Source of the DNA: Candidatus Latescibacterota bacterium
GTDB taxonomy: Bacteria; Latescibacterota; UBA2968; UBA8231
Reading direction: 5' to 3'
Length of the DNA stretch: 64,000 nucleotides
Assembly: GCA_965221775.1 (NCBI GenBank)
Contig: CBDCSU010000006.1
Location: 1,344,001 to 1,408,000, forward strand
In this document: piece by piece, positions 3,182 through 55,407 of the stretch
Numbering within the stretch: the first letter of the stretch is position 1
Layout of the letters: each line of letters opens with the position of its first letter
Position numbers and translations under genes: made by a program
Notes under the pieces: generated by a model
The model's database searches: none
Seen by the model: the letters and a program-made list of their open reading frames with translations, nothing else
Told to the model about the DNA's origin: nothing

Positions 3182-3330
3182 GCAGCCGGTATTTCCACAT
3201 ATATTGGAGCCCCGGAGCCCTCGCCCCCCGGCTGACCCGGCCGGCGGCGCAAGCCTCGCCCGCCGCCACGGGGAGGCCCCGCAGCCGCTCACTCCTCCGG
3301 TCCCTGGTGGCCGGGCCGAAGGCGCTCCCC

Positions 3331-5046
3331 ATGCAGATGGCCATGCCGATTCCGAAGGCCCCCGCCCGCCGCTTGTCCATCCCCTCCTCCACCCGGGTGC
3401 GCTTCCTCGCGCCCGCCCTCCTCGCCGCCCTCCTCGCCGGCTGCGGTCCCGACGAACTGGTCCTGGCCCGGGTCGGGGATTCCGAGATCACCGACTCCGG
3501 ACTGCAGAGGTTCGTCGACCGGTTGCCCGACCACCTGGTGAGCGACCAGCAGGGGGTCGCAGCCGACCGGGACCACCTGGAGAGCCTGGTCGACCAGGAG
3601 CTGCTGCTGCTGGAGGCCCGCAGCCGGGGGCTGGACACCACCTCGGCGCTGGCCCGGCAGATGGAGGACGCGGAGCGGGCCTGGCTCTCCCGGCGCTACC
3701 AGCGCCAGGTGATCGCCCCCAAGGTCGAGATCGGCCCCAAGGAGGTGGAGCGCGCCTTCCACGACATGGGCTTCGACCGCGAGCGGCTGCTGCAGCGCAT
3801 CGTCCTCAAGGGGAGCGAGGCCGAGGCCCGCGCCGTCTTCGAGCAGCTCGAGTCGCGAACCGACTACGACGAGCTGGCCAGGGAGTACGCCCCCAACGAC
3901 CCCAGCACCGACTCGACCGGAACCATCGGCTGGGTCGGCGTGCCCGGACTCAAGCGCCTGCGGGTGCCGCAGGGCGAGTTCCTCTCCCTGCCGGTGGGAA
4001 CGCCGGCCCTGCTCCCCCTCTCGCAGCTGGTGTGGCAGATCATCCGCTTCGCCGAAGACCGCGAGGCGCCGATCCAGCTCTACGCCGAGGACGTCCGCAA
4101 GCTCCTCTACATGGAACAGTGGTGGCGCCGCACGGAGGAGGAGATCGAGCTGCTCCGGCGGGACCAGGACGTGCGCCCCCACCCGGAGGGGGTGCGGGCC
4201 CTCATCGAGCGCACCGAAGCGCGCCAGCCGGAGCTGACCCCGGAGCAGGCCCGCCAGCCGCTGTTCACCTGGGCCGGCGGCGGCCCCATCACCGCCGCCG
4301 ACTTCGTCGACCGGGTCCGCAAGATGGCCAAGAGCTCGGCCCTGTCGGACAGCGCCCTCATCCTCTCCATCGCCGAGCGGGAGCTCCTCTACCCCCGTCT
4401 CTTCGCCTTCGCGGCGCGGCAACGAGGATGGCACCAGGACGAGGCCTTCGACGAGTGGCGGGCCCACACCCGCGACGGGCTCCTGGTGGACCACCTGATG
4501 CAGACCGAGGTGGAGGACCACCTGGTGTTCTCGGAGGAGGAGGTTCGGGGCTACTTCGAGGCGAACCGCGAGTTGTTCAGCGCCGGCGACAGGGCCCGCA
4601 TCGAGGAAGTGCACACGGAGGACGAGGACGAGGCCCGGGGGTGGCGCGGCGAGATCGAGGGGGGAGCAACCTTCGCCGAGATCCTCCGGCGTCCGGGCGC
4701 GGCCTCCCACGGCATCCACAGGAGGGGCGGGGAGATGGTCCTGCAGCGCCATCTCGCCGAGGGCTTTCCGGAGCTGGTGGAGGCCGCCTTCTCGGCGCCC
4801 GTGGGCGAGGTGCTGGGTCCTCTGTACCTGGAGAAGGTCGACAGCCATGCGATCCTGCGGGTCCTGGAGCGGGAGGGCAGCCGCCTCCTGACCTTCGAGG
4901 AGGCGAGCGCCGCCGTGGCGCAACACCTGCGCGCCAAGGAGCGGGACACCCGGGTCTCCGCCCTCTTCGAGTCCCTGCGGAGCAGATACGGGGATCGCAT
5001 ACAGGTCTTCGAGGACCGCCTGGAACAACGGCACGCAAAGGGGTAA
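3331..5046 (+). CDS. PpiC/parvulin-type (SurA/PrsA-like) chaperone, probable lipoprotein
   Basis: Hydrophobic stretch ending LLAGC (lipobox), VLARVGDSEIT, LESLVDQELLLLEARSRGL, and two rotamase-like segments (YDELAREY..GTIGW; FAEI..GG..PELVEAAFSAPVGEVLGP). Start uncertain (3178-3343). Confidence 0.75.
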   Translation: MQMAMPIPKAPARRLSIPSSTRVRFLAPALLAALLAGCGPDELVLARVGDSEITDSGLQRFVDRLPDHLVSDQQGVAADRDHLESLVDQELLLLEARSRGLDTTSALARQMEDAERAWLSRRYQRQVIAPKVEIGPKEVERAFHDMGFDRERLLQRIVLKGSEAEARAVFEQLESRTDYDELAREYAPNDPSTDSTGTIGWVGVPGLKRLRVPQGEFLSLPVGTPALLPLSQLVWQIIRFAEDREAPIQLYAEDVRKLLYMEQWWRRTEEEIELLRRDQDVRPHPEGVRALIERTEARQPELTPEQARQPLFTWAGGGPITAADFVDRVRKMAKSSALSDSALILSIAERELLYPRLFAFAARQRGWHQDEAFDEWRAHTRDGLLVDHLMQTEVEDHLVFSEEEVRGYFEANRELFSAGDRARIEEVHTEDEDEARGWRGEIEGGATFAEILRRPGAASHGIHRRGGEMVLQRHLAEGFPELVEAAFSAPVGEVLGPLYLEKVDSHAILRVLEREGSRLLTFEEASAAVAQHLRAKERDTRVSALFESLRSRYGDRIQVFEDRLEQRHAKG

Positions 5047-5057
5047 GGAGCCAGTCG

Positions 5058-7730
5058 ATGAACCTGCACGGCAATCCGGCAGCCGCTCTCGGTCTCCTGG
5101 GGCTGCTCGCCCTGGGCCTGCTGCCCGCCTCGGCGCAGCAGGACTACGGTGCGCGGCTGGGCCTCCGCCAGGGGGAGGAGTACAGCCTCGCTCCCCAGGG
5201 GCCGGGAGTGATGCTCAACGCCGTCGACCCGGCCATGCGCAAGTGGTACGTGCCCCAGGAGCTCTACCTGGACTACCGCTGGCGCCAGTGGGACTACACC
5301 AACTACGCCCGCGACCACTACCAGCGCTACATCGACACCACCCTCGAGGGCGAGCACTTCTACGACATCTACGGCAACTTCCTCACCCGGGGCTGGTTGA
5401 TCTACAACAACTCGCAGACCACGCCGGAACAGTTCGGGAACTCGCTGCTCAAGTCCAACCGCTTCCGGGACTGGTTCTCCGGCGTCGTGGTGACTCACGA
5501 CCAGAAGGGCCAGTACCACTTCTCCCTCACCGTGAGCAATCAGCTGCGCACGGTGCTGACGCCCATGGTGTTCTCCAAGCCGCGTTTCGACGGGCTGCAG
5601 TTCGACCTGGCCACCGACCGCGCCGAGGCTACCCTGCTCTATTCGCGCATCAGCAGCCCCGGCGGCAGCAGCACCCTCGACCGGGAGTTCCTGAGCACCA
5701 ACAACACCAGCCTCGTGGGCGGGCGGCTGGCCGCCCAGATCGGCGACTACCTCAAGCTCGGGGTCCACGGCGTCAACGCCCACCAGTCCAACACGCTGCG
5801 GGACAAGACCAGCTGGAACCCCTTCGCCGGCGAACTGACGGTGGCCCAGAACGAGGCGATCTCCTCCATCGAGATCGTCCTGCGCGACGACTCCCCCGGG
5901 GACGGGGAGGGCGGCGCCGCCTGGTTCCCCGCCGGGTCCGACATCTTCATCACCTACCAGGACGGTACGCAGGAGCGCGGCCGGGAGATCGGATTCCAGC
6001 CGGTGGTGGAGGGCGGCATCGTCCGCCAGGGCTTCATCGCCGCCGACGGCACCGAGGAGATCCGGCTGATCTACAACTTCGACAGCCCCGGATTCCTCGA
6101 CCGCGCGAAGTACACCAAGACCGAGATCGTCGAGGTCGAGTTCCAGCTGCAGATGGGCAACGACTACCAGGTCTGGATGACCTCCGACAGCCAGACCGAC
6201 TTCCACGGGCAGCCGGTGCTGCTCCTGGTGGCCCAGGCCGAGGGCAACGTCCGCGACATCACCAACCTGCGCACCCTGCGCTTCCACTACGGCCTGCCCA
6301 CGGCGACCCACGTGGCCGGCGGCAGCCTGGAGATCCGCGCCCCCTTCGGCCTCGACGTGTACGGCGAGTACGACCGCAGCTGGAGCTACCGCAAGTACCC
6401 CAACGCCGCCGAGGAGATCCACCACTCCAGCTCGGGGATCGAGGGCGCCGAGAGCGCGCCGGCGTGGATGCTGAACGTCTCCCGGAGGAAGGCCCCCTGG
6501 TTCCTCTTCGGCGAGGCCTACAGCATGGACCCGTTCTACAACACGCGATCCCTCCTGTGCACCCGGGTCGGGGAGATCTACTACGGCGACACCCGCCGGA
6601 GCGGGTACGAGCTGGTGGAGGACAACGACGACCACGACCGCATCCCCGACACGGTGCGCTCGGACTGGTTGAGGGGCGACACGGAGGTCTATCCCGGCTG
6701 GGACCAGAATAATGACTTCGTGCCCGACTTCAACCAGAACGACAACAGGGTCCGAACCAATGCCGTGCCCGACTACGAGGAGGCCTTCCTGCGCTTCGGC
6801 GTGGACCCGCCGGAGTTCCTCTTCGGCGTCGACATGAACCACAACTTCTGGGTCGACCAGTACGAGAACGACGAGGCTCCCGACTTCCCGTACCGCAAGG
6901 ACCACGAGGGGTTCAACATCTACGGCGGCGCCGAGGTCGCCCCGGGGATGAAGTTGATGGCGGGCGTGCTGCGCGAGGAGCTGATCTCCAGCGACCGCAG
7001 GAATCACAGCAACTACGCCCTGGCGACCATCGACTCGGACTCGCCCCGCTTCGGCCGCCTGCGCCTCTTCCTCATGACCCAGTGGGTCCAGGACGACATC
7101 CCCGACCCCCTGTTGCAGTGGGCTCCGGACAACTCCCTGCGCGGCGGCGAGCTCGTCCTCATCGAGGATCCCCTGCTTGGGCAGGACACCTGGATCAACC
7201 AGGTCTTCCTCGGCCACTCCCTGGAGTCGGGGCCGTGGCTGGTGGTCAACAAGGTGAACCACCTCCTCTACGACCAGCGCATGTCCGGCGAGCGCCGCCG
7301 GGAGCTCGGCCTGGCCGGCGAGGACTACTTCTTCGGCCTCATCGACAAGGTCAGCTACCGGCACCGGATCGGGCCTTTCCTCCTGGAGCCGCGGTGGAAG
7401 AGCGAGTACACCCGCCAGAGCCGCGGTCTCTTCGGCGCCGGACGGCGGTCGCGCCTCACCGAGATGGCGGGGATCATCGCCCAGACCCGGGTCCTGAGCT
7501 CCTCCAAGGTCCAGACCGGTGTCGAGTACCTGTACCTCAACGATCTCGACGACGACGAGCAGGACTTCGACGCCTTCACGGTGGCCGTGCAGTTCACCAC
7601 CGACTCCACCTACCTGGGCTACCGCCTGCGCTCGCTCCTGGGCGTCTCGGTCGAGCACCGCGCCTTCGAGGAGCGCGAGTCCCGGACCACCAACCAGTTC
7701 TTCGTCACCATCTACGCCGGTCTGGAGTAG
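5058..7730 (+). CDS. Large exported protein (890 aa), probable outer-membrane beta-barrel with Asp/Asn-rich loops; paralog A1
   Basis: AAGGAG RBS before ATG 5058 and a signal peptide (…LLPASA-QQ). The C-terminal half has alternating beta-strand patterns ending FFVTIYAGLE. Colinear with 11807..14551. Confidence 0.75.
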   Translation: MNLHGNPAAALGLLGLLALGLLPASAQQDYGARLGLRQGEEYSLAPQGPGVMLNAVDPAMRKWYVPQELYLDYRWRQWDYTNYARDHYQRYIDTTLEGEHFYDIYGNFLTRGWLIYNNSQTTPEQFGNSLLKSNRFRDWFSGVVVTHDQKGQYHFSLTVSNQLRTVLTPMVFSKPRFDGLQFDLATDRAEATLLYSRISSPGGSSTLDREFLSTNNTSLVGGRLAAQIGDYLKLGVHGVNAHQSNTLRDKTSWNPFAGELTVAQNEAISSIEIVLRDDSPGDGEGGAAWFPAGSDIFITYQDGTQERGREIGFQPVVEGGIVRQGFIAADGTEEIRLIYNFDSPGFLDRAKYTKTEIVEVEFQLQMGNDYQVWMTSDSQTDFHGQPVLLLVAQAEGNVRDITNLRTLRFHYGLPTATHVAGGSLEIRAPFGLDVYGEYDRSWSYRKYPNAAEEIHHSSSGIEGAESAPAWMLNVSRRKAPWFLFGEAYSMDPFYNTRSLLCTRVGEIYYGDTRRSGYELVEDNDDHDRIPDTVRSDWLRGDTEVYPGWDQNNDFVPDFNQNDNRVRTNAVPDYEEAFLRFGVDPPEFLFGVDMNHNFWVDQYENDEAPDFPYRKDHEGFNIYGGAEVAPGMKLMAGVLREELISSDRRNHSNYALATIDSDSPRFGRLRLFLMTQWVQDDIPDPLLQWAPDNSLRGGELVLIEDPLLGQDTWINQVFLGHSLESGPWLVVNKVNHLLYDQRMSGERRRELGLAGEDYFFGLIDKVSYRHRIGPFLLEPRWKSEYTRQSRGLFGAGRRSRLTEMAGIIAQTRVLSSSKVQTGVEYLYLNDLDDDEQDFDAFTVAVQFTTDSTYLGYRLRSLLGVSVEHRAFEERESRTTNQFFVTIYAGLE

Positions 7731-7732
7731 GG

Positions 7733-9718
7733 ATGAGCCTCGGGGAGAAGGGCCGGAGCGCCGCCGCGCAGGCGGCTGCCATCTTCGCCGCCGCCCTGGC
7801 GGCCCGGTGGATCTACGTCCACCAGTCGGGCAGCCACCCTGTGCGCGACGTCCCGCTGGGGTCCGCCATCGCCCACCTGGAGCGGAGCTCGGGCGAGGCG
7901 GCCGGTTTCGCCTCCCTCTACGACGCCTTTCTCGCCATCCTCCCCGGGGACCTCGACCTGGTTCGCGGAGTCCAGGTGGTCCTCGGAGCCGTCAACTGCG
8001 TCCTGCTCTGGTGGCTGGCCAGGTCCGTCCTCCCGCCGAGGGCGGCTCTCGGGGCCGGCCTGGCCCTCGCCTTCTTCGGACCGGCCATCTACTTCTCCGG
8101 CGAGATCCTGCCCCCGGTGCCGGCCACGTGCCTGGTGCTGCTCGCCCTGATCACCCTGTCGCGGGCCCTCGCCTCTTCCGGGAAGCGGCCGTTCTGGCTG
8201 CCGGGGCTGCTGCTGGGGCTCGCCGCCCTCGCCGAGTGGTGGATCTGCCTCTTCGCCCTCGCCCTGGCCCTCTGGCTGCTGCGGAGCCACCGTGGCGCGG
8301 CCCTGCCTCTGGCCTTGGGGACCGCCGCCGTCCTGCTGCCCGCTTGGCTGCTGTCGGCCTGGTCGCCGGAGGCGGCCCCGGGGCTGGTGGAGGGGGTCCG
8401 ACGGGTCCACGCCCTGTGGCAGGGAGGCGAGTTCCTCGGGGAGCTGGATCCCTACTTCGGGAGCCGCAACTCCAGCCTGCTGTCGGTGTTGATGTGGGAC
8501 GAGGGGCTGGCCTTCCCCTTCGGCGTGGCGGCGCCGCTGGCGCTGGTGGGCATCCTCTCGCGCCTGCGCGGCGGGCGAGAGCCGCTGGAGACCGCCCTGC
8601 TCCTCTTCGCCGGCTGCTTCACCGTGCAGGCCCTGCTCCTGCCGTCCGCCGACTCGGCGGTACGCGCCCCGGTGGTGCCGGTCCTGCTGATCTTCGCCGC
8701 CGCCGGGGTGACGGCCATGGCCGCCCTTCCGAGGCTACCGGCCCTGGCAGCGGCGGCCGCCTGCCTACTGCTGGCCGTCGGCCTCAACGCCGGCGATGCG
8801 GGCGCCGAGGGCCGGGCCCGGCAGCACTACTGGCTCGGCCATGGCTTCGGCCAACTCGGACTGCGCGCCAACGCCGTCCGCGAGTACGAGACGGCCCTGG
8901 CCCTCGACCCCGCGAGGCTGGAGACCTACCAGGCCCTGGCCGGGCACTACCGGGCCCAGCAGGATGACATCCGCGCCGCCGGCCTCTACGAGAGCCTGCT
9001 TGAGCGCTGGCCGGAGATGCACGGGGCCCGCATGGCCCTCGCCAAGGTCTACCTGACCTCGGGACGGGCCGCCGAGGCGGCCAGATGCTACCGGGATCTG
9101 ATCGCGGCGCAGGCTGGCCCCGCGGACTCGCTGCTGACCCTGCTGGGCGACGCCCTGTTCCGCAGCGGCGACCTGGAGGGGGGCCTGGGCGCCTATGAGC
9201 AGGCGTTGGCGGCGGACCCGGAAAACGCCCGGGCCCGCGGCATGCTGGCGCTGCTCTACTCGGCCGCCGACCGGCTGCCCGAGGCGGAGGAGGCCTGCCG
9301 CGCGCTCTACGAGGGGGGACTGGTGGCCGAGTACGGTCCCGTCCTGGCCGAGGTGCTGATCCGCCGCGGCCGGGACGAGGAGGCGGCGGAGGTGCTGGAG
9401 CATGTCCTGGAGACGGCGCCGGACTCGGGCGCAGCCCTCGGCTTGAGGGGCCGGCAGCTCCACGAGCAGGGCCGCCACCGGGAGGCCGCGGCCCTCTTCG
9501 AGCGCCTGCGCGCGGTCTGGCCCGAGGACCACCGGGTCCACTACTACCTCGCCCTGATCTACGAGCGCCTCGGCGACGAGGCCCGGGCCGAGGAGTCCCG
9601 CCTCGCCTACGTCCGCCATCAGAGGAACCGCGAGCGCGAGGATCTGCAGGGGCACCTGACGATGGTGACGAGCATGATGACCGACCAGCTCCAGTCCCGC
9701 CTGGGGGTGGGGCCGTGA
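7733..9718 (+). CDS. GT-C (ArnT/PMT/GT39-like) multi-pass membrane domain fused to TPR repeats; possibly degenerate
   Basis: Many transmembrane segments followed by TPR-like helices (ALALDP, YEQALAADPEN). Paralog of 21865..23793, sharing LDPYF and GLAFPFG..PLAL.G. Confidence 0.7.
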   Translation: MSLGEKGRSAAAQAAAIFAAALAARWIYVHQSGSHPVRDVPLGSAIAHLERSSGEAAGFASLYDAFLAILPGDLDLVRGVQVVLGAVNCVLLWWLARSVLPPRAALGAGLALAFFGPAIYFSGEILPPVPATCLVLLALITLSRALASSGKRPFWLPGLLLGLAALAEWWICLFALALALWLLRSHRGAALPLALGTAAVLLPAWLLSAWSPEAAPGLVEGVRRVHALWQGGEFLGELDPYFGSRNSSLLSVLMWDEGLAFPFGVAAPLALVGILSRLRGGREPLETALLLFAGCFTVQALLLPSADSAVRAPVVPVLLIFAAAGVTAMAALPRLPALAAAAACLLLAVGLNAGDAGAEGRARQHYWLGHGFGQLGLRANAVREYETALALDPARLETYQALAGHYRAQQDDIRAAGLYESLLERWPEMHGARMALAKVYLTSGRAAEAARCYRDLIAAQAGPADSLLTLLGDALFRSGDLEGGLGAYEQALAADPENARARGMLALLYSAADRLPEAEEACRALYEGGLVAEYGPVLAEVLIRRGRDEEAAEVLEHVLETAPDSGAALGLRGRQLHEQGRHREAAALFERLRAVWPEDHRVHYYLALIYERLGDEARAEESRLAYVRHQRNREREDLQGHLTMVTSMMTDQLQSRLGVGP

Positions 9719-11796: not shown

Positions 11797-11806
11797 CGGG
11801 CCGGCC

Positions 11807-17673: not shown

Positions 17674-17689
17674 CGAGGGGCCTGTAACC

Positions 17690-19855
17690 ATGATCAACCG
17701 CATCGGATTCGCCGCCGCCGCCCTGCTGCTCTCCCTGGCCGGCACCCTCTGGGCACGGGCGGAGTTCCACCTGGGATCCGGAGCGAACGACTGGCAGCGC
17801 TTCGCCGTCCCCGAGGAGGAGGAACCCGCGGGAGCCTATGTGACGGTGGACTCGGCCGGGAACGTGCTCCAGGAGCACCCGGTGAGGTCCATCGAGGAGG
17901 AAGGGGGCGGGACCTTCCTCCTGGAATACAACTACCGAGGGCCTGATCTGCCCGACATGGAGGGTGGCATGCTCCGGGCGGAATGGATCGATCCCATGGT
18001 GAACCTCGCCCGGGACAGCGTCCTCTTCGCGCGGGGGGGCAACGTCTACCACGGCCACAACACCAGCCGATTCCCCACCGGGGACCTGCTGCTGCCCCTC
18101 GACGGAGACCCCACCACCGCGCGCCTGATCCTGCTCGAGGACAACCCCCTCCTGGCGGTGCCCCTGGTCCGCGGCGGGGTGTACCTGGGGGCCCAGTCCT
18201 CGGCGGTGATCCTCAATCTGGGCAAGCAGACACCCATCAACCGGGTCCGCGTCTACCCGCGGCTGGGCCGCCTCGACGACGCCGCCGCCATCGCCGCCAT
18301 GGCGGAGCCGAAGCCCGACCCCGAGTTGTTCGGGGAGACCAGTTTCGCCGACAACTACCTCGAGTGGTACGAGATCGCGGTGACCGACAACGACGCCCCC
18401 ATCAAGGAGTTTCCCGGCGGCGGCATGGGGGCCCGCCCGGGCCAGGGGCAGTTCAAGCGCTACTCCGAGACCACCGGGTACGTCGACTCGGCCGCCACCG
18501 ACCCGAACTTCGACGCCCTGATCCAGACCCGGGAGAACCTCGAGCCGGTGATCGATCTCCGGTTCCCCGTGCGCCACGAGCGCTTCGTCTCGGTGCGCCC
18601 CTATATCCCGGAGCGGACCTGGGAGATGGCGGAGATCGAGGTCTACGGCGAGGGCTACGTGCGCCGCTCCGTCTACCGCTCGCAGATCCTGGACTTCGGC
18701 CAGCCCGTCTCCTGGAGCAAGATCCGCTGGAGGTCGGAGCGCCCCCCGGGCACCGGGATCGAGGTGCGCACCCGCACCGGGAACACCCCGAGCCCCGACA
18801 TCTTCCTGCGGCGCGGCGTGAGCGGGCGGTACCAGCCCATCGACTGGCTCAGCTTTCAGCAGAAGCTGACCTCGGGAGAGGTCCGGCGCGTCACCGACGT
18901 GGAGAACTGGAGCTTCTGGTCGGCCACCTACGACTTTGCGTCGGGCGAGCGCGGCGACGGTCCCGCCGCCGCCTGGACCGACGGCACGCCGCTGCTCTCT
19001 CCCGGTCCGAGCCGCTATTTCCAGTTCGAGGTCGTGCTGCTGGCCGCCAGCGACCGAACCCCGGTACTCCACGATCTGTCCCTGCTGTTCTCCGAGGCGC
19101 CCGCGGCCTCCCAGGTGATCGCCGAGATCTGGCCCATCGAGGTGGACGGCTTCGAGCCCCATGCTTTCACCTACGTGGTCAAGCCCATCCTCCGCGACGG
19201 CAACCGCGGCTTCGACCGCCTGGAGATTCTCACCGGCGGGCCCGCCGTGGCGGTGACCTCGGTGCGCGTGGGCGGGGAGGAGGTCATGGACCGGTTTCCG
19301 CCCGAGGTCCTGGAGGACCGGATCCTCCTCTCCTTCGACCGGCTGGAGGACCCGGGGCGCGACAGCGAGAAGCGCATCGAGGTGGAGTTCAGGGCCCGCG
19401 TCCTGCGTTTCGGGGCCGAGTTCAGCGGCTGGGTCTACGACAGCCGCGAGCCGGACCTGAAGCAGAGCGTGACCCCCGGCAACGCCACGGTCCGCTTCGT
19501 CGGCGACGGGCTCTCGGTGCGCACCCCCACCGACGGCGGCCTGCTGCAGCGGCTCCACATCCGGCCCGCCGTCTTCACCCCCAACGGGGACGGCATCAAC
19601 GATGAGGCGATCCTCTCCTTCGACCTGCGGGACCTCACCGAGGCCCGCCCCGTGGAGGTCCGGATCCTGACCCTGGACGGCCGCCTGGTGCGGCGGCTGC
19701 AAGCCTCGATGGCCAGCGGCCACTTCGTCCACCGTTGGAACGGCCGCGACGATGCCGGCAGCCCGGCGCCGCCGGGGGTATACCTTGCCCAGGTCCGGCT
19801 GGAGAGCGACGAGGGGCGCAGGACGGCCACCCGCCTCCTCTCCCTGGCCTACTGA
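17690..19855 (+). CDS. Exported protein with C-terminal FlgD-Ig-like domain; paralog B3
   Basis: Signal peptide; DGDPTT; RTRTG; SPGPSRYFQF; AEIWP; FTPNGDGIND; WNGRDDAG..APPGVYL; ends LSLAY. Confidence 0.8.
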   Translation: MINRIGFAAAALLLSLAGTLWARAEFHLGSGANDWQRFAVPEEEEPAGAYVTVDSAGNVLQEHPVRSIEEEGGGTFLLEYNYRGPDLPDMEGGMLRAEWIDPMVNLARDSVLFARGGNVYHGHNTSRFPTGDLLLPLDGDPTTARLILLEDNPLLAVPLVRGGVYLGAQSSAVILNLGKQTPINRVRVYPRLGRLDDAAAIAAMAEPKPDPELFGETSFADNYLEWYEIAVTDNDAPIKEFPGGGMGARPGQGQFKRYSETTGYVDSAATDPNFDALIQTRENLEPVIDLRFPVRHERFVSVRPYIPERTWEMAEIEVYGEGYVRRSVYRSQILDFGQPVSWSKIRWRSERPPGTGIEVRTRTGNTPSPDIFLRRGVSGRYQPIDWLSFQQKLTSGEVRRVTDVENWSFWSATYDFASGERGDGPAAAWTDGTPLLSPGPSRYFQFEVVLLAASDRTPVLHDLSLLFSEAPAASQVIAEIWPIEVDGFEPHAFTYVVKPILRDGNRGFDRLEILTGGPAVAVTSVRVGGEEVMDRFPPEVLEDRILLSFDRLEDPGRDSEKRIEVEFRARVLRFGAEFSGWVYDSREPDLKQSVTPGNATVRFVGDGLSVRTPTDGGLLQRLHIRPAVFTPNGDGINDEAILSFDLRDLTEARPVEVRILTLDGRLVRRLQASMASGHFVHRWNGRDDAGSPAPPGVYLAQVRLESDEGRRTATRLLSLAY

Positions 19856-20008
19856 GCCCCCCGGGGCCGGCCACGGAAGAGCCACTATTTTCTTGTATGG
19901 TGACCCGGGATTGGTTACCTTGGATCGCTATCCGGTTCACGAACCTCCGGCGCCGCGGAGCGCCAGCTTCAGATTCCTTCCCCATCTCCCATGCAAGGAG
20001 AGAGAACC

Positions 20009-20935
20009 ATGTTCAGATGCGCGCAGATGATCGTCGTCGGCGTTCTCGCCGTTTCCACGGCGGTCTTCGCCCACATCCCCGAGGATGAGGTTCGGAACAC
20101 GGTGCAGTTCCCGGCCGGCGCCGAGCCCACCATCGACGGTGACTGCTCCGATTGGGACGCGGTCCCCGCCGATCAGTACTGGCTCACCAACGCCGATCTC
20201 TATCCCTTCAACGACTGGCAGCCCGAAGGGACTCAGAAGGGCGACGCCGATCCCAGTTCCTTCGATGCCACCATCCGGGTCGGCTGGAGCGCCAGCACGG
20301 GGCAGATCTACTACTGCAACTCGATCTTCGATGACGTCCATGTCATCGACCGCCCCGATTCCTACGACTGGTACAACGACGACTGCAGCGAGTACTTCTT
20401 CACCACCCGCCACCTCTCCGAGCAGGAAGTGAGAGACCTGGCCGGCGAGAACGTCAACACCTACTGGGGCTTCAACTATGCCCTGCCGCGGCTGCCCGAT
20501 CCCGACGCCTTCTGGATGGTCATCGGCATCTGCATCGGCTGCGACTGGCTCGACAGCGGCGACAACGAGTTCTACACCCTGGTGCACAGCTTTGATGGTG
20601 AGGAGTTCGGCGAGAGCACCTACCATTACGAGCACCGAGTGGCCCCCATCGACTCGTGGGTCGGCGGTCTCGACGCTGAGGACAAGTCTCCAGACATGAT
20701 CACCACCACCACCCTCAGCGAGGGTCAGACGATCCACATCACCTTCTTCAACACCGACGACGACGCCAACCTGCCTGACAACGCCCAGGGAGGCCCCGCG
20801 TGGTCCACCAGGCCAGGCGGCTCGGGAACATGGCTGGGACAGGGCGACTTCTTCCTGGAGCCCGTCAACCCCTCCATCAACTTCCCGACGGCTGTCGAAT
20901 CGAAGAGCTGGGGCAGGATCAAGGCTCAGTTCTGA
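20009..20935 (+). CDS. Exported CBM9/DOMON-like protein with C-terminal 'TAVESKSWGRIK' tail
   Basis: AAGGAG RBS; signal peptide (…TAVFA-H); PTIDGDCSDW and 'DDVH…W.NDD.SEY' pattern typical of CBM9-like sugar-binding domains; acidic composition. Confidence 0.65.
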   Translation: MFRCAQMIVVGVLAVSTAVFAHIPEDEVRNTVQFPAGAEPTIDGDCSDWDAVPADQYWLTNADLYPFNDWQPEGTQKGDADPSSFDATIRVGWSASTGQIYYCNSIFDDVHVIDRPDSYDWYNDDCSEYFFTTRHLSEQEVRDLAGENVNTYWGFNYALPRLPDPDAFWMVIGICIGCDWLDSGDNEFYTLVHSFDGEEFGESTYHYEHRVAPIDSWVGGLDAEDKSPDMITTTTLSEGQTIHITFFNTDDDANLPDNAQGGPAWSTRPGGSGTWLGQGDFFLEPVNPSINFPTAVESKSWGRIKAQF

Positions 20936-20968
20936 GGCTTCGCAGTTCAGAAGTCTCCCTTTAACTCG

Positions 20969-21007
20969 CGCTGGGCAGGTCTGACGACCTGTCCAGCGTT
21001 TTTTTTT
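20969..21007 (+). terminator. Rho-independent terminator
   Basis: 13-bp stem CGCTGGGCAGGTC / GACCTGTCCAGCG (one G-U pair), 4-nt loop TGAC, followed by 9 T, just downstream of the 20009..20935 gene. Confidence 0.85.
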
Positions 21008-21008
21008 C

Positions 21009-21518
21009 TCACAGCCCGAGTCGTTCGAACGTTCGAAGCGGCAGGAACAAGCGTCGGGGCTCCGACGGGAAGGGTGTGAACCCATAGCGTTCGTAGAAGG
21101 CGCTGGCGCGGTCGTGAAGAGCATCGACGACGACGGCATAGACGCCGATCGTGTCGGCCGCTCGGACGATACGATGGATCGCATCGAGCAGGAGGGTTTC
21201 GCCGAGCCCGCGCCCCTGGCTGCGAAGGTCGACCGCCAGCCGACCCACCACCGCCGCCGGCACGGGATAGTGGGGCAGGCGCCTGGCGAGCTCTTCCGGC
21301 AGATCGTCCTTCTCGAAGTTCGCCGCGCTCAGCGTGTAGTAGCCGGCAATCTGTCCGGGAGCCCCGCCCGGGGCGACGAAGACCCGGGCGACACGCCGCC
21401 GGGAATCCTGGGAGGCCTGCCGGCGAATGTAGGTGTCGAGGGACGGTTCCCCACAGGAAAAGGACGCCCGGTCGTGATGCGGACCGAGCGGCTCGACCGT
21501 GAGCGGGTGTTCACCCAC
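21009..21518 (-). CDS. GNAT acetyltransferase toxin (TacT/AtaT-like)
   Basis: HDRASFSCGEPSLDTY, GYYTLSA, GRLAVD..QGRGLG..LL.DA, VVDA…FYERYGF; overlaps its antitoxin gene. Confidence 0.92.
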   Translation of the reverse strand: MGEHPLTVEPLGPHHDRASFSCGEPSLDTYIRRQASQDSRRRVARVFVAPGGAPGQIAGYYTLSAANFEKDDLPEELARRLPHYPVPAAVVGRLAVDLRSQGRGLGETLLLDAIHRIVRAADTIGVYAVVVDALHDRASAFYERYGFTPFPSEPRRLFLPLRTFERLGL

Positions 21519-21795
21519 CGATGCGCTGGCGGTAGCGCCGGGCGGCCCTCCTCAGGGCCGCGTTCGGGGCGGGGGGGTTGAGCAGAGCGTCGTGGAAGGC
21601 GTCCCAGTCCGTCTCAGGGAGCACGATCCGCTCGCGCTCCTCGATCACCCGCTCCGCCGCCGCCACGGCGTTGCTCAGCACGAAGCGGCTGACCGTGGTT
21701 TCCTCGTAAGACGCCGCCCGTTCGAGCTTGCGCTTGCTCTTGGGGTCGAGGCGCAAATGCACCCGTTCGTGCTTCGTTTCGGCGATCTTGGCCAT
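21511..21795 (-). CDS. DUF1778 ribbon-helix-helix antitoxin (TacA/AtaR-like)
   Basis: 94 aa: K.ERVHLRL…KLERAA…TVSRFVL..A…I.L…WDAF.DALLNPP.PN.AL; directly upstream of the GNAT toxin. Confidence 0.92.
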   Translation of the reverse strand: MAKIAETKHERVHLRLDPKSKRKLERAASYEETTVSRFVLSNAVAAAERVIEERERIVLPETDWDAFHDALLNPPAPNAALRRAARRYRQRIGG

Positions 21796-21831
21796 CAGGG
21801 GGGTCTCCAGTGTGAGATTCCGATGGAAACA

Positions 21832-21848
21832 TGCGCCAATATGGCGTA
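21832..21848. promoter_or_regulatory. Probable antitoxin operator (inverted repeat) in the TA promoter
   Basis: TGCGCCA-ATA-TGGCGTA near-perfect palindrome about 37 bp upstream of the antitoxin ATG, next to a minus-strand TTGCAG (-35-like, 21851-21856). Confidence 0.55.
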
Positions 21849-21864
21849 CACTGCAAGAGTGACC

Positions 21865-23793
21865 ATGGAACGCCGGCACTGGATCAGCCTGAGCCTGCTG
21901 GCCCTGGTAGCACTTGCCGTGCGGGTGATCTACCTGCTCCAGGCGGACGACAGTCCCCTGTTCTACCACCCCATCGTCGATGCCCGCACCTATGTGCGCA
22001 CGGCTCTGCACCTGGCCGAGGGGCAGTGGCTGGGTCCGCCCCAGCCGTTCTGGCAGCCGCCCCTGTATCCCTACTTTCTCGCCGGGTCTTTCGCCCTCTT
22101 CGGAGAGAGCTACCACCTGCCCCGGCTCGTGCAGGCCCTCTCCGGGACGGCGGTCTGCCTGCTGGTCTTCCACCTGGGACGCCGCGCCTTCTCTCCCGCC
22201 GCTGGCTGGATCGCCACCGGCGCCGCCGCCCTCTACGGCCCCTTCCTCTACTTCGAGGGCGAGTTGCTGCCCGCCGCCCTGGCCGTCTTCCTCAACGCCC
22301 TGGCACTGGCCGCCCTGCTGTGGGCCGGCGGGGGCCGTTCCACTTGGCGCTGGCTGGCCGCGGGTCTGCTCCTGGGCCTGGCCGCCCTGAACGTGCCCAG
22401 CGTGCTCCTCTTCATACCCCTTGCTCTCGCCTGGGCCCGGCTCCGGGCGCGGGCGTCCCTGCCCGCCCTCGGTGCCCTTGTCCTGGGCGTCATCCTGGCC
22501 GTCTCGCCGGTCACCCTTCGCAACCGCATCGTCGGCGGCGAGTGGGTGCCGATCTCCTACAACGCCGGGATCAACTTCTACATCGGCAACAACCCCGACT
22601 CCGGGCGCACCACGAGAATCCGCCCCGGCCGCGACTGGCAGGAGCTGACGGCCATGCCGGAGCGGGAAGCCGGGATCACCGAAAAGGGAGCCTCCTCGAG
22701 ATACTTCTTCGGGCGCTCGCTGGAGTACCTCGCAGGTGATCCCGGGGGCTATCTGCTCCTGCAGCTGCGCAAGCTCCACCAATTCTGGCGCGGCGACGAG
22801 ATCCCCCGGAACCTGGACCCCTACTTCGCCCGGAGCGGATCCTGGCTGCTGCAGGGACTGCTGTGGATACGGGGGCTGGCCTTCCCCTTCGGCCTGGTGG
22901 GGCCACTCGCCCTGACCGGGCTGGTCCTGTATCTGCGGAGTCCCCCGGCGCGGTCGCCGGCGGGGGACCTGCTGCTGCTCTTCGCCGCGGCCTACATGCT
23001 GGCCGTGGTCCTGTTCTTCGTCACCGGACGCTACCGGCTGCCGATGATCCCCTCACTGCTGCTCTTCGCAGGGTACGGGGTGACGCGGCTGTCCCAGCTG
23101 CGGGGGCGGCGGCTGGCCCTGGGGCTCGCCCTGCCGGCCGTCCTGGGGCTCGCCCTCAACACCGGGGTCCCGGCCATGGAGATGGAGGGAGGCAGCCAGG
23201 AGCACCTCTACCTGGCGTCGGCCTACGCCGAGCAGGGCCTGCAGGCCAACGCGCTCCGCCATTACGACGAGGCCCTGAAGCGCGAGCCGGACCACGAGAT
23301 CGCCCTCCACGACGCCGGCGCCCTGCTCGCCCGGCGCGGCGACGTCCGCCGGGCGGCGGAGACCTGGGAGCGCCTGCTGCATCACTACCCCGACCGCTCC
23401 GACGTCCGCTTCCGGTTGGCCGCCATGAGCCAGGACACGGGCGATCATGCCGCGGCGATCCCGCATCTGGAGCGGCTGGCCGCCGATGAGCCGGGGCGCG
23501 CCGTCTTCCACGCGCGGCTGGCCTGGTCCCGCCGCGAGGTCGGCGATCTGGAGGGGGCCGCCCGCGCCTACCGCCGCGCCCTGGAGCTGGATCCCGCGGC
23601 GCTGTCCCTGCACCGGCAACTGGCGCGGCTGGAGATCCGCCGCGGCAACGCGGACGCGGCCATGCCCCACGTGCGGGCCCTGGAACGCCACGCCGGCGAG
23701 GACCCCGCCGCCCGGCGGGAGGTGGAGGAACTCCACCGGCTTCTGGCCACGGCGGCCGGACCGCCGGCGGCCTCCGGGACGGGGCGTCCGTGA
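21865..23793 (+). CDS. GT-C (ArnT/PMT/GT39-like) glycosyltransferase fused to TPR repeats
   Basis: PIVDARTY first loop, FWQPPLYPYFLA, NAGINFYIGNN, FFVTGRYRLP, multiple TM helices, C-terminal TPR helices (YRRALELDP). Confidence 0.8.
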   Translation: MERRHWISLSLLALVALAVRVIYLLQADDSPLFYHPIVDARTYVRTALHLAEGQWLGPPQPFWQPPLYPYFLAGSFALFGESYHLPRLVQALSGTAVCLLVFHLGRRAFSPAAGWIATGAAALYGPFLYFEGELLPAALAVFLNALALAALLWAGGGRSTWRWLAAGLLLGLAALNVPSVLLFIPLALAWARLRARASLPALGALVLGVILAVSPVTLRNRIVGGEWVPISYNAGINFYIGNNPDSGRTTRIRPGRDWQELTAMPEREAGITEKGASSRYFFGRSLEYLAGDPGGYLLLQLRKLHQFWRGDEIPRNLDPYFARSGSWLLQGLLWIRGLAFPFGLVGPLALTGLVLYLRSPPARSPAGDLLLLFAAAYMLAVVLFFVTGRYRLPMIPSLLLFAGYGVTRLSQLRGRRLALGLALPAVLGLALNTGVPAMEMEGGSQEHLYLASAYAEQGLQANALRHYDEALKREPDHEIALHDAGALLARRGDVRRAAETWERLLHHYPDRSDVRFRLAAMSQDTGDHAAAIPHLERLAADEPGRAVFHARLAWSRREVGDLEGAARAYRRALELDPAALSLHRQLARLEIRRGNADAAMPHVRALERHAGEDPAARREVEELHRLLATAAGPPAASGTGRP

Positions 23794-25697
23794 GCTCCCT
23801 GCGGGCCACGTACAGGGCCCTCTTTCTGGGCGCCCTCGGGTGCCTGCTGGTGGGGGCGGGCTCCCAGTACACGGACATGATGCTCAAGCGCTCCGGCTTC
23901 ACCGGCTGGTACTACACGCCCGGCGCGCTGATCATCCTCTTCACGATCATCCTCGTCTTCAACCCCCTCACCGGCCTCATGCGCCGGCGGTGGATGCTGT
24001 CACCCGCCGAGCTGGCGCAGATGTACGTCATGTGGATCGTCGGCTCGGCGGTGGCCACCTGCGGCATCGTCTCGTACCTGCTGCCCATACTGACGTCCGC
24101 CGTCTACTACGCCAGCCCGGAGAACAACTGGGGCTACGAGTTGCTGCCCCTGATCCCGGACTGGGCGATCCCCACCAAGGAGTTCGGCGAGATCAAGGAC
24201 TTCTACGAGGGCGCCCCCGGGGGAGGCGTGCCCTGGGGGCTGTGGCTGCCGCCCCTGCTCCACTGGCTGCCGCTGGCCCTCTCCCTGCACCTGGCCATGA
24301 TCGCCATCATGGTCATCCTGCGAAGGCAATGGGTCCACCACGAGCGCCTGATCTTCCCCATGACCCAGCTGCCGATCTCCATGATCGACGACGGCGACTC
24401 CCCGGGGCTGATCAAGCCGCTCTTCAAGAGCTGGCTGTTCTGGCTCGGTTTCGCCATCCCCTTCCTCATCCAGTGCTACAACGGCATAAACCGCCACTTC
24501 TGGTTCCTGCCCATCATCCCCATCGGCGGCTACTACCTCCACTTCTTCGAAGACCAGCTGCGCCTGCGCATCGGCATCAACTTCATGATGATCGGCTTCA
24601 CCTACCTGGTGCGGCGCGAGGTCTCCCTCGGCTTCTGGGTCTTCGCCATCCTCAACTTCGCCCAGGAAGCGCTGATGATCACCCTGGGGGTGGAGCGTAT
24701 CGATCCCCTCTTCAGCCCCTGGTCGCGGGGCGGCACCATCGCCTCCCACCAGGGGTTCGGCGCCTTCCTGGTCCTCGCCCTCTTCAGCCTGTGGAACGGC
24801 CGCCGCCACATCCGCAGGGTCTTCGCCCATGCCTTCGGCCGGGGCCCGCGGATGGACGACGGCGACGAGATTCTCTCCTACCGGGGGGCGGTGCTGCTGC
24901 TGTTGGGTTGCCTCGGCTTCATGTGCTTCTGGCTGTGGCAGGCGGGGATGCCGGCGTGGATCACGGTGGTCTTCCTCTTCCTGGCCTTCATCCTCTTCCT
25001 CGGCATCACCCGCATCATCTCCGAGGGAGGACTGCCCTACTTGGTGACGCCCATGGTGGCCTCCGACGTGGTCATCGGGGGGATCGGCACCCGGGCCCTG
25101 GGGCTGACCGGCATCGCCGCCCTCTCCCTAACCTACATGTGGGCCAGCGACATCATCACCTTCGTCATGGTCTCCTGCTCCAACGGGCTCAAGATCGTCG
25201 AGGAGCACGTGAAGAAGGGACGGCGGCTGATCTTCCCCAGCATGGTGGTGGCCCTCGTCGTCTCCATGGGCGGCTCCGCCTGGGTGATGCTGAGCATCGC
25301 CTACGAGCACGGCGGGCTGAACACCTCCCACTACTTCCTCGAGCAGACCCAGTATCCGTGGCAGGACGCGCTGGCGCGGGTGCGCTCCTCGGTGGGGCCG
25401 AAGTGGGAGTACTGGGGCTACATGACCATCGGCGGCAGCATCATGGCCGGACTCATGCTTCTGCGCCAGCAGCTCGTCTGGTGGCCCCTGCACCCCATCG
25501 GTTTCCCCATCAGCCTGGTGATCCACAAGATGTTCTTCACCGTGCTGTTGGCCTGGCTGCTGAAGACGATCATCCTCAACTACGGCGGCCCCCGCCTGTT
25601 CACGCGGATGCGGCCCTTCTTCCTGGGGCTGATCCTCGGCGACTTCCTGCCCCTGGGGGTTCTGCTGCTCCTCGACCAGATCGCCTTACGCCTGTAG
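23790..25697 (+). CDS. DUF6785/DUF6784-like polytopic membrane protein (putative transporter)
   Basis: Highly hydrophobic; YYASPENNW, LRRQWV.HERL.FP..QLP, WWPLHPIGF, PFFLGLILG. Start overlaps the upstream stop. Confidence 0.75.
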   Translation: MSSLRATYRALFLGALGCLLVGAGSQYTDMMLKRSGFTGWYYTPGALIILFTIILVFNPLTGLMRRRWMLSPAELAQMYVMWIVGSAVATCGIVSYLLPILTSAVYYASPENNWGYELLPLIPDWAIPTKEFGEIKDFYEGAPGGGVPWGLWLPPLLHWLPLALSLHLAMIAIMVILRRQWVHHERLIFPMTQLPISMIDDGDSPGLIKPLFKSWLFWLGFAIPFLIQCYNGINRHFWFLPIIPIGGYYLHFFEDQLRLRIGINFMMIGFTYLVRREVSLGFWVFAILNFAQEALMITLGVERIDPLFSPWSRGGTIASHQGFGAFLVLALFSLWNGRRHIRRVFAHAFGRGPRMDDGDEILSYRGAVLLLLGCLGFMCFWLWQAGMPAWITVVFLFLAFILFLGITRIISEGGLPYLVTPMVASDVVIGGIGTRALGLTGIAALSLTYMWASDIITFVMVSCSNGLKIVEEHVKKGRRLIFPSMVVALVVSMGGSAWVMLSIAYEHGGLNTSHYFLEQTQYPWQDALARVRSSVGPKWEYWGYMTIGGSIMAGLMLLRQQLVWWPLHPIGFPISLVIHKMFFTVLLAWLLKTIILNYGGPRLFTRMRPFFLGLILGDFLPLGVLLLLDQIALRL

Positions 25698-31033: not shown

Positions 31034-31390
31034 TCACGGTCTCTCGACAGGCCTGAGCAGGGCGTGGATTCCCCGCAGCACCTCGTTGAAGCGGGCGCGG
31101 CCCAACGACCCGATGCGGCCGTCGAGCATCGACCGGTCCACTGTTGCGATCTGGGAGATGTTGACCACGGATCTCTTCGGGAGGCCGGCTTCCCCCATCC
31201 GCAGGGTCACGTTTCCGAAGGCCTGGCCGAGCCGCAGGTTGCCGGTGATCGAGGCAACCACAACGGTGGAGATTCTGCTTGCGTTGAAGGCATTGTTCTG
31301 GATGACGACGCAGGGGCGCCTGAATCCCGGCTCCGAGCCTTTCGGGATCCCGAAATCGACCCAGTGAACCTCTCCCTGGGAGACTACCAT
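31034..31390 (-). CDS. PemK/MazF family endoribonuclease toxin
   Basis: QGEVHWVDFG.P.GSEPG.RRPCVVIQNN.FN.S.I.TVVV..IT.N, GL.K.SVVN.SQI.TVD. Confidence 0.92.
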   Translation of the reverse strand: MVVSQGEVHWVDFGIPKGSEPGFRRPCVVIQNNAFNASRISTVVVASITGNLRLGQAFGNVTLRMGEAGLPKRSVVNISQIATVDRSMLDGRIGSLGRARFNEVLRGIHALLRPVERP

Positions 31391-40938: not shown

Positions 40939-41254
40939 CTCAATGCCCTCCCGAAAGGCCATCATGCCAACCGTGTCAGCTTGACGGCACCTTGCTTTGG
41001 GGGAGTAACCGCTGCGGCCCCCCGTCGCACGGTGGCCCCGAGCAGGTCGGAGCGCCGGGCGGGGCGGGCTGGGGAGGGATGGTTCGCCGCCAGGGGGGGA
41101 GGACGACGGCGATGACAACGGCCGAGGGCCAGGCGAGGCAGGGTCTCCTCGTGCCACGGGTAATCTACCCGGCGGCGGGCCGGGCGGGCAAGCCCGGGGT
41201 CAGGCGGCCTCCCTTGTCCTGCGGCGGCGGGCGATGGCCGCGCCGGGGCGCCTT

Positions 41255-47418: not shown

Positions 47419-47419
47419 G

Positions 47420-55395: not shown

Positions 55396-55407
55396 GTGCC
55401 GCTCAAC

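Follow-up and report, generated by a model that had tools for sequence, protein, structure and literature searches.

A conserved envelope gene module of Latescibacterota that combines predicted outer-membrane barrels of an undescribed family with lectin-like candidate cargo of the type IX secretion system

Introduction

The closest described logic for the locus reported here is that of surface proteins with a type-B C-terminal domain and their cognate PorP/SprF barrels, as represented by SprB-SprF and PG1035-PorP-PorE in Bacteroidota's type IX secretion system (T9SS). In a passage of PMC12618676 such type-B cargo is stated to be 'often genetically linked' to PorP/SprF-like genes, and a passage of PMC9143113 describes it as bound to PorP-like barrels. 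The locus lies in a 64,000-nucleotide stretch of DNA from Candidatus Latescibacterota bacterium (GenBank assembly GCA_965221775.1, contig CBDCSU010000006.1, positions 1,344,001 to 1,408,000, forward strand), which was analyzed at its full length and is called the window below. Its genes encode a parvulin lipoprotein (g1), two paralogous proteins of a family termed A (A1 and A2), three exported proteins termed B (B1, B2 and B3), a secreted protein (G8), two predicted GT-C glycosyltransferases with tetratricopeptide repeats (TPR; g3 and g9) and a DUF6785 membrane protein (g10).

In common with the PorP/SprF systems, this module has putative cargo with a CHU_C-type C-terminal domain (above the Pfam cut-off in 10 of 18 paralogs and below it in B1-B3 themselves, see below), a cargo gene that adjoins an outer-membrane barrel gene, a T9SS core encoded elsewhere, and many copies of the cargo-partner combination. 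It differs from them in that A does not resemble PorP/SprF in sequence, has about three times their length and contains two large insertions, that one or two barrels are found per three cargo types, that its conserved members further include a parvulin, an enzyme of the GT-C/TPR type and a CBM9-like protein, and that it occurs in the phylum Latescibacterota, not Bacteroidota, with binding of the cargo by A being a proposal here. Similar to SusC/SusD loci, the module comes in numerous diverged, paralogous copies within a genome (11 loci here) and joins an outer-membrane barrel to surface glycan-binding proteins (predicted here) and often to a linked inner-membrane permease, with sulfatase or glycosidase genes near several of its loci. 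Unlike in SusC/SusD loci, neither A nor its isolated N-terminal stretch matches a TonB plug or TonB_dep_Rec, a SusD-like lipoprotein is lacking, the binding proteins would be T9SS cargo instead of lipoproteins, and a glycosyltransferase and a peptidyl-prolyl isomerase (PPIase) are conserved in place of a degradative enzyme or regulator. Since A fails the family tests for PorP/SprF, TonB-dependent receptors and ushers, with no match to a family-defining hidden Markov model (HMM), the resemblance to type-B cargo systems and SusC/SusD loci is one of logic and not of family. The module as a whole is real, conserved and undescribed, and resembles the cargo-plus-barrel and utilization-locus kinds in the same manner. 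Literature searches for Latescibacter with type IX secretion and outer membrane, or with T9SS, found nothing, those for Latescibacterota with polysaccharide and outer membrane found only unrelated papers, and the passages searched of a paper on PAUC34f (PMC7081726) mention neither outer membrane nor FlgD nor TPR.

Results

A co-oriented operon of envelope genes

In the window, which has a G+C content of about 70%, the coding frame is marked by a third-position GC of 0.81-0.99 in a single frame per gene. This yielded ten genes on the + strand at 3.3-25.7 kb, and a gene caller that uses codon statistics, with training on this genome, returned the identical set (Table 1). The intergenic distances amount to 11 nt (g1-A1), 2 nt (A1-g3), -4 nt (g3-B1), 10 nt (B1-A2), -1 nt (A2-B2) and 16 nt (B2-B3), followed by 153 nt between B3 and G8. 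An earlier reading of this DNA, made from the sequence without database searches (the sequence-only reading), had described co-oriented genes separated by at most 16 bp or overlapping from 3331 to 19855, in agreement with these values of -4 to 16 nt. It had also placed a terminator behind this run of genes, and such a structure, consisting of a 14-pair stem (9 G-C), a 4-nt loop and a T-run, indeed stands just 3' of the G8 stop (20935), in a scan that found three terminator-like sites in 2.2 kb compared to 1.1 expected from shuffles. Likewise, the toxin-antitoxin pair that it had recognized is borne out as GNAT/TacA1, which sits on the minus strand (21009-21795) between the terminator and g9. 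Its statement that all products are exported or membrane-bound holds as well, with a lipobox in g1, signal peptides in A1, A2, B1-B3 and G8, and eight to nine hydrophobic spans in the GT-C genes and g10 (nine in the N-terminal half of g3 and nine in g10). A co-oriented envelope operon at 3331-20935 is thereby confirmed, and the arrangement goes far beyond chance, since this combination of genes is found again and again, at 11 loci in this genome and at 72 in others.

Four metatranscriptome runs, belonging to two studies, contain contigs that cover 21-29 of the 30 bins of 3001-22000, in which bins without cover carry no meaning and contigs of this type are no proof that the genes are transcribed or co-transcribed. 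Part of the locus is present in a sponge metatranscriptome library, and relatives come from metagenome-assembled genomes (MAGs) of sponges.

A large barrel family without described relatives

A1 and A2 are 52% identical over 898 columns. Neither protein matched a Pfam or NCBIfam model at E<=0.01, three parts of A1 that were cut out (its N-terminal stretch and the two insertions, beta-sandwich and Asp-rich) had no Pfam match at E<=10, and a profile of the A family found no match among the sequences of the PDB. A collection clustered at 90% contains 679 A homologs, the best 120 of which include none with a Pfam domain and carry 'hypothetical protein' as their sole source name, and a collection clustered at 50% contains 684 representatives, 181 of them at E<=1e-30. 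By these searches the A family is large, well conserved and without a described relative, and its description as undescribed in the sequence-only reading stands. A protein-language look-up in the Atlas with an A1 homolog returned unnamed clusters only, plus DUF6029 at 0.89, which is a lead only.

A model of A1, built with AlphaFold2 from a 50-sequence alignment (pLDDT 76.7, pTM 0.72), shows about 24 long antiparallel strands in its secondary-structure string. A beta-sandwich of ~150 residues is inserted at about 246-404, after about strand 7, and would, by strand count, lie in an outward-facing loop. A second insertion, irregular and rich in Asp and Asn, occupies about 500-615 and contains most of the invariant and nearly invariant residues of the family, which cluster at 520-615; from composition alone it is read as a predicted calcium-binding loop. 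The N-terminal stretch (about 50-100) is conserved in the family yet poorly modeled. With this model Foldseek found MtrB, SlpA, LptD and FimD (E 1e-10 to 1e-6), and VIA-align, an all-against-representatives comparison independent of Foldseek, returned barrels only, the best being a porin at Z 13.6. The longest structural alignments were obtained with SlpA (424 residues, Z 11.8), FimD (333, Z 10.3) and SprA (330, Z 9.4). The ushers FimD and PapC ranged at Z 10.2-10.3 over 306-333 aligned residues, and the barrels of PgaA, PelBC and BcsC at Z 9.6-12.6. As no structural match stands out, A is predicted to be an outer-membrane barrel of no identifiable subfamily, and the A-type barrel proposed by the sequence-only reading is supported by a model that matches only folds of this kind.

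Lectin-like B proteins with type IX-type tails

The three B proteins are related to each other, B1 and B3 by 27% identity over 617 columns (BLASTP 5e-48) and B2 through its tail, which aligns with that of B1 at 3e-13. In a model of B3 built from a 43-sequence alignment (pLDDT 82.5, pTM 0.71), residues 100-324 superpose on the CBM32 chain 4zxe_A with Z 13.1 and an rmsd of 2.8 over 127 aligned residues (23% identity), and dozens of further CBM32 chains, mostly modules of glycosidases, follow at Z 10-12.6. This region is modeled as a discoidin-type jelly roll and is predicted to bind sugar. The middle region is Ig-like in the model, and residues 616-721 superpose on the tail of PorU (6za2_B; Z 12.7, rmsd 2.6, 99 aligned) and on that of PorZ (5m11_A; Z 10.8), two solved tails that are of the type-A kind, so that the fold leaves the T9SS subtype of the B3 tail unsettled. 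The sequence-only reading had noted FlgD-Ig tails that resemble T9SS sorting domains, a proposal that is upheld by this superposition and was worded too weakly.

Profile searches point in the same direction. FlgD_ig is matched by B2 and B3 at 27.4 bits (cut-off 27), and B2 further reaches 26.7 bits for F5_F8_type_C (cut-off 28.2), 22.8 bits for CHU_C and 17.5 bits for TIGR04131 (cut-off 35). B1 stays below the cut-offs with CHU_C (22.9 bits) and FlgD_ig (19.1 bits) and matches the NCBIfam model of the PorU C-terminal region at 2.1e-4. All 18 scanned paralogs (out of the 27 other B ORFs (open reading frames), taken from sister loci) carry a CHU_C or FlgD_ig tail; 10 of them pass the CHU_C cut-off at 28.2-33.0 bits, and six have F5_F8_type_C. 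Among the B homologs listed, most are precomputed as PF13585, and in their sources B homologs are called 'gliding motility-associated C-terminal domain-containing protein'. A sequence search of solved structures with B2 and B3 found only weak FlgD tails. Co-folding of A1 (30-890) with the B3 tail (612-721), both with alignments, gave a score of 0.00 and the verdict 'no answer', which speaks neither for nor against binding.

The assembly of the window (5.36 Mb, 6 contigs, 96.8% complete) encodes components of a T9SS at other positions. These include SprA (612 bits summed, over the cut-off), two PorU proteins (580 and 542 bits, over the curated cut-off) and a PorV-like protein (148 bits, below the cut-off of 250) whose gene adjoins one of the PorU genes. 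For PorP/SprF, PF11751 had no match in the genome, with the control being silent too, and TIGR03519 reached only 20 bits, on the PorV-like gene. The GldM model also found no match, and because the control genomes were equally silent its absence is unsupported. Beside the B genes these two PorP/SprF models, with the same silent control for PF11751, detect no gene of that family, and an A barrel gene adjoins instead. Since the tails are sorting-domain-like and the genome encodes SprA, two PorU and a PorV-like protein, B1-B3 are best read as putative lectin-like T9SS cargo, which would make the module an accessory of the T9SS and not a self-contained export system.

Recurrence within the genome and across the phylum

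A phmmer search with the ten proteins against all ORFs of the genome (E<=1e-5) returned 20 A, 30 B, 21 DUF6785, 13-14 GT-C/TPR (some TPR-only), seven parvulin and eight G8 sequences. All 20 A genes and 27 of the 30 B genes are located within 11 loci, and every A gene stands beside B genes. Eight of the loci are of the window's type, while the remaining three contain one to four distant A paralogs (25-30% identity) together with a B-like protein with a clear F5_F8_type_C domain and a FlgD_ig-tailed protein; one of these (L073) also encodes a bona fide CBM9 protein as well as one that is transglutaminase-like. Parvulin paralogs are found in seven of the 11 loci.

A scan across genomes with a degenerate pattern, using one genome per species, revealed 586 loci that encode A relatives. 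Of these, the 72 best loci, nearly all of which belong to Latescibacterota MAGs, were analyzed, with counts that are lower bounds because many loci end at contig ends or at the 10-kb flank. A was present in 72/72, B in 70/72 and all three B types in 46/72 of these loci, and in 65 of the 70 with both genes the gap between A and B was at most 300 nt. GT-C genes occurred in 63, G8 in 54 and parvulin in 46-47 of the 72. The commonest order was DUF6785, parvulin, B2, A, GT-C, B1, B3, A, G8, and one locus (L001) has the gene order of the window.

Among 168 genomes of the phylum, the A profile (E<=1e-10) was found in 107 and the B profile (E<=1e-30) in 93, both in 75/75 genomes of family f1 and in 0/56 of families f2, f3 and f4; SprA was found in 163/168, including 75/75 of f1 and 56/56 of f2, f3 and f4. 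The A and B counts are equal in f5, f6, f7, f9, f11, f12 and f14, and differ in f8 and f13 (A 1/1, B 0/1 in each) and in f10 (A 13/13, B 1/13), where the A matches are more distant and B may fall under the strict threshold. These genomes are sampled from the phylum of the window and are kin, not independent, so that no statistical claim is attached to the counts. Together they show a phylum-wide T9SS that is supplemented by the A/B module in a lineage-specific manner, and the co-occurrence of A and B that the sequence-only reading had put forward for testing is supported both by neighborhood and by shared distribution.

Three MAGs that bear the label 'Gemmatimonadota' and contain many A genes proved identical to genomes of f1, the family to which the window itself belongs. 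Two further labels that would widen the range of A were rejected, with mis-binning being likely in both cases, namely a MAG labeled Woeseia, with three matches on two contigs (one of 12.8 kb, L049), and a MAG labeled Bryobacterales, with one match on a 4.7-kb contig.

The other members of the module

The parvulin, the two GT-C/TPR genes, the FlgD-Ig-like tails and the DUF6785 protein, all recognized in the sequence-only reading, are each supported by Pfam. In g1, Rotamase_2 scores 40.9 bits (cut-off 27) and SurA_N_3 20.3 bits (below the cut-off of 27.2), and the EpsD-family PPIase model is matched at 6e-11. g3 and g9 are predicted GT-C (PMT_2) enzymes with 31.6 and 36.1 bits, respectively (cut-off 26.1), and many TPR families match at the C-terminus; weak matches of the TPR parts to the PgaA, BcsC and PrsT models are generic. 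By domain architecture alone, a PMT_2 membrane domain followed by TPR, the two proteins are similar to PMT/TMTC-type O-mannosyltransferases. Eukaryotic TMTC enzymes have the same architecture and glycosylate the Ig-like domains of cadherins. The second GT-C gene, g9, can be read from 21499. Since that longer ORF overlaps the toxin-antitoxin pair, the start is most likely near 21859.

g10 matches DUF6785 with 381.3 bits and DUF6784 with 87.3 bits. It has 295 homologs at E<=1e-10, of which 120 listed ones have no functional name, and 21 paralogs in the genome, eight of them at six module loci. A protein-language look-up with a DUF6785 homolog led to clusters named 'peptide transporter'/OPT, a weak lead with values of 0.76-0.78 that lie under the reliable range, and a literature search for DUF6785 by name found nothing.

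The G8 family (22 aligned members) is characterized by a signal peptide, an IDGD.SDW motif and a conserved extreme C-terminus, TAVE..SWGRIKAQF. Its earlier description as CBM9-like is only weakly supported, with 10 of the 22 members matching CBM9_1 weakly (E<=1, best 1.4e-5), while the window's own G8 has no Pfam match. A comparison of G8 with the bona fide CBM9 protein of the genome (BLASTP E 0.25; profile comparison probability 0.8%) was not supportive by either method. A nearly invariant His is the predicted first mature residue (A-x-A followed by H-x-P-P-G-E), and a second His is common and not invariant. An N-terminal His after cleavage is known from histidine-brace copper proteins, such as lytic polysaccharide monooxygenases and CopC/YcnI. 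The G8 start (20009) is preceded by a GGAG-type ribosome site. In three marine metatranscriptome runs of one study, G8 alone (19940-20924) is covered by near-identical contigs of 900-950 nt, the ends of which carry adapter-like letters. Their mean word depth is 105-205 compared to 0-19 for bins over other genes, and the sponge run lacks such an excess. This hints at an own, stronger transcript of G8, perhaps from the 153-nt spacer behind B3, with contig depth being a poor measure.

Genomic neighborhood

The genes downstream of the module encode another DUF6785 protein, a TIM barrel similar to xylose isomerase, Gfo/Idh/MocA oxidoreductases and hydrolases that are esterase-like. The second DUF6785 gene, which stands beside sugar-type catabolic genes (those of the TIM barrel and of a Gfo/Idh/MocA oxidoreductase), is possibly associated with the module. 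Around sister loci, 135 flanking genes (21 + 65 + 49) were scanned and found to include two sulfatases, four FGE-sulfatase proteins, a GH42, a BNR protein, a DUF4838 protein, a PcRGLX-like protein, a rhamnose mutarotase and two GDSL hydrolases. In addition, about ten FG-GAP/UnbV_ASPIC proteins, often fused to or beside TPR proteins, are encoded near eight of the 11 loci of this genome and loosely recall PorE, a TPR/propeller protein that binds PorP. ExbB/ExbD, DUF4159 and a TPR protein of ~1080 aa stand beside two of these loci, and DUF4159 with a long TPR protein alone beside a third. The loci on contigs C6 and C5 have a 1080-aa TPR/YfiO-like protein and DUF4159, and the C6 locus also has ExbB and two ExbD genes, which raises the question of whether some A-type barrels might be energized.

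Other features of the window were observed at a greater distance. A PemK/MazF-like toxin gene with a small upstream ORF at 31034-31632 (-) forms a second toxin-antitoxin pair. At 38671-40965 (-) a 764-aa protein contains CarboxypepD_reg, an internal (not C-terminal) FlgD_ig, a type I dockerin, CARDB and Big_2, and around it large proteins without a Pfam match are encoded at 36674-38665, 41255-43189, 45880-48967 and 49076-51106. The G+C content falls to 0.616 at 54-56 kb, adjoining a pentapeptide-repeat protein (53193-54245) and a gene-free gap (region 53193-56031).

Table 1. Features of the module in the window and related loci of the same genome
Feature	Coordinates	Strand	Basis or remark
g1, SurA-like parvulin lipoprotein, 571 aa from 3331	3331..5046	+	alternative true start 3373 or 3397; lipobox LLAGC
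A1, predicted outer-membrane barrel, undescribed family, 890 aa	5058..7730	+	signal peptide; model
g3, predicted GT-C glycosyltransferase (PMT_2) with C-terminal TPR, 661 aa	7733..9718	+	Pfam
B1, exported protein with type IX-type C-terminal domain, 693 aa	9715..11796	+	Pfam, NCBIfam, BLASTP
A2, paralog of A1, 914 aa	11807..14551	+	identity to A1 (52%)
B2, exported protein, discoidin-like domain near N-terminus and type IX-type tail, 1040 aa	14551..17673	+	Pfam
B3, exported protein, lectin domain predicted as CBM32-like at 100-324, then Ig-like domains, with a type IX C-terminal domain at 616-721, 721 aa	17690..19855	+	model
G8, secreted protein, divergent CBM9-like family, 308 aa	20009..20935	+	22-member alignment
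Intrinsic terminator closing nine-gene operon	20968..21009	+	hairpin at 20968-20999, then T-run
GNAT toxin gene	21009-21518	-	acetyltransferase
TacA1 antitoxin gene	21511-21795	-	92.7 bits
g9, second predicted GT-C (PMT_2) and TPR gene, 644 aa from ~21859	21859..23793	+	start by codon statistics
g10, DUF6785 and DUF6784 polytopic membrane protein, presumed inner-membrane permease	23790..25697	+	Pfam
Second DUF6785 and DUF6784 gene	26623..28614	-	DUF6785 409.6 bits; divergent from module
Distant-A loci	C6:1-23110 (L073, L088); C5:355000-378600 (L074, L084); C3 (L075)
FG-GAP_3 and UnbV_ASPIC examples	L080:10657-12273; L082:13235-14962; L088:12187-14526; L089:869-2581; L078:4904-6607

Discussion

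The combined data suggest, at what we judge to be an even chance, that the module represents a surface lectin complex that is served by the T9SS, sits on a barrel specific to the module and captures glycans. The B proteins would cross the outer membrane via SprA and would then be retained on the surface by docking on the A barrel of their own module, similar to type-B cargo on PorP/SprF. The parvulin may assist the periplasmic folding of the giant barrel, of the cargo or of both, while the GT-C enzyme, guided by its TPR, would glycosylate module proteins prior to export, and G8 would join the complex outside the cell. The complex would capture specific marine glycans or glycoconjugates, the products of which would be imported by the DUF6785 permease, and the A barrel might possibly also serve as entry pore. 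Glycan capture is favored because the module exists in many diverged copies, contains lectin domains, is linked to the DUF6785 permease and, at sister loci, has sulfatases and glycosidases as neighbors. With respect to the sequence-only reading, which had proposed a dedicated system for either SusC/D-like substrate capture or export, the capture reading remains viable, backed by the B lectin domains and the degradative neighbors, while self-contained export becomes improbable with the T9SS core that is encoded elsewhere. The pairing of each A barrel with particular B partners that it had put forward stays a proposal, and type-B cargo with a cognate barrel, the nearest precedent, was not named in it.

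Several observations weigh against this reading. Physical binding between A and B is so far a proposal, and A, about three times larger than PorP/SprF, has no detectable similarity to them. The strand count, the barrel closure and the side of the insertions in A1 are read from the secondary-structure string only. The tail of B3 superposes on the type-A-like tails of PorU and PorZ, and in Bacteroidota such tails are handled by PorV and lipid anchoring, with no dedicated barrel needed. CHU_C scores of the window's own B tails (22.9, 22.8 and 23.6 bits for B1, B2 and B3) stay below the cut-off of 27. Furthermore, A has no TonB plug or box and the import route is unproven, and a GT-C enzyme and a PPIase would be assembly factors, which are not typical of uptake loci. 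GT-C genes at >=200 bits are found in only 5/11 loci of this genome and 37/72 foreign loci, and DUF6785 genes are linked in 6/11 and 19/72, respectively. No degradative enzyme is present among the genes of the window's operon, the degradative neighbors differ from locus to locus, and no glycoside hydrolase or lyase is conserved in the module.

The same architecture might instead serve adhesion, gliding or a variable glycoprotein coat in contact with a host or particles, with the eleven modules providing surface variation and the GT-C enzyme making coat glycoproteins. This alternative, which we consider somewhat unlikely, gains from the naming of B homologs after gliding motility, from the lack of an enzyme conserved inside the module, and from the module-specific glycosyltransferase and chaperone, which suit a structural glycoprotein. 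Moreover, the occurrence of part of the locus in a sponge library and of relatives in sponge MAGs would fit host contact. In a passage of PMC9143113, SprB, the best-studied type-B cargo, is described as an adhesin bound to SprF. However, domains of the CBM32 and CBM9 types are typically those by which degradative systems recognize glycans, 19 of the 72 foreign loci have a linked polytopic permease, sulfatases and glycosidases neighbor the sister loci, and the GldM model was unmatched, though its control was silent as well.

In a second alternative the module would be a self-contained chaperone-and-pore export system independent of SprA, in which the parvulin acts as chaperone, A as usher-like pore with a plug-like sandwich, and B1-B3 and G8 are the substrates. 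Comparable to the chaperone-usher systems FimC/FimD and PapD/PapC, the locus has a periplasmic folding helper, whose gene is present in seven of the 11 loci of this genome, a ~24-strand barrel with a beta-sandwich inserted after about strand 7, and Ig-like exported partners. FimD and PapC are also among the longer structural alignments of A, and G8 has a conserved C-terminal strand-like motif. In contrast to those systems the helper is a parvulin and not PapD-like, A matches no usher HMM and no PapD-like Pfam model, and its structural similarity to ushers is no better than to other barrels. The insertion would lie in an outward-facing loop and not in the periplasmic turn used by usher plugs, and the tails of the B partners are T9SS sorting domains by fold and HMM in a genome that has SprA, PorU and a PorV-like gene, so that we hold this explanation to be improbable.

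A slimmer chance still is given to glycan export or modification, according to which a lipid-linked sugar polymer would be made or transferred by the GT-C enzyme, a polymer that travels through the TPR part and the A barrel, in the manner of PgaA, BcsC or PelB, and is held by the B lectins. GT-C enzymes generally use lipid-linked donors, PgaA, PelBC and BcsC are among the matches of A, the TPR parts weakly match the PgaA, BcsC and PrsT models, and g1 matches the EpsD-family model. However, the genes for a polymerase, a flippase, Wzx/Wzy or sugar nucleotides are not conserved in the module, a GT-C at >=200 bits is missing from about half of the foreign loci, the TPR matches are generic and porins are matched by A just as well as these barrels. 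That the genes are mere neighbors with separate envelope functions and no common complex is very improbable and was already disfavored, for although physical interaction is still only proposed, order and content are conserved over 72 foreign and 11 paralogous loci, reading frames overlap or abut, and A and B share their presence and absence across the families of the phylum.

If the reading as a T9SS-served lectin complex is carried further, A might be an independent invention that merges the cargo-anchor role of PorP/SprF with the entry-pore role of SusC, without a TonB plug. The module would then represent a second, non-homologous principle of a polysaccharide utilization locus, built from T9SS cargo in place of lipoproteins and equipped with module-specific protein glycosylation, an extension that we regard as unlikely.

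Nearly all that is known of T9SS and of SusC/D-type loci comes from Bacteroidota, and the locus described here comes from a sister lineage of the same superphylum. This genome devotes ~20 genes for barrels and 30 for lectins to a module that follows the same logic with a barrel family that is undescribed by any database. Whether bacterial GT-C enzymes with TPR glycosylate proteins in the periplasm is a question for which the module provides a natural test. Should the barrels hold the cargo or feed on it, they would show type-B-like cargo handling where PorP/SprF are missing, a large conserved family (684 cluster representatives) would join the catalog of outer-membrane machines, and a new handle would be provided on how glycans are turned over by uncultured bacteria that are abundant in marine settings and in association with sponges.

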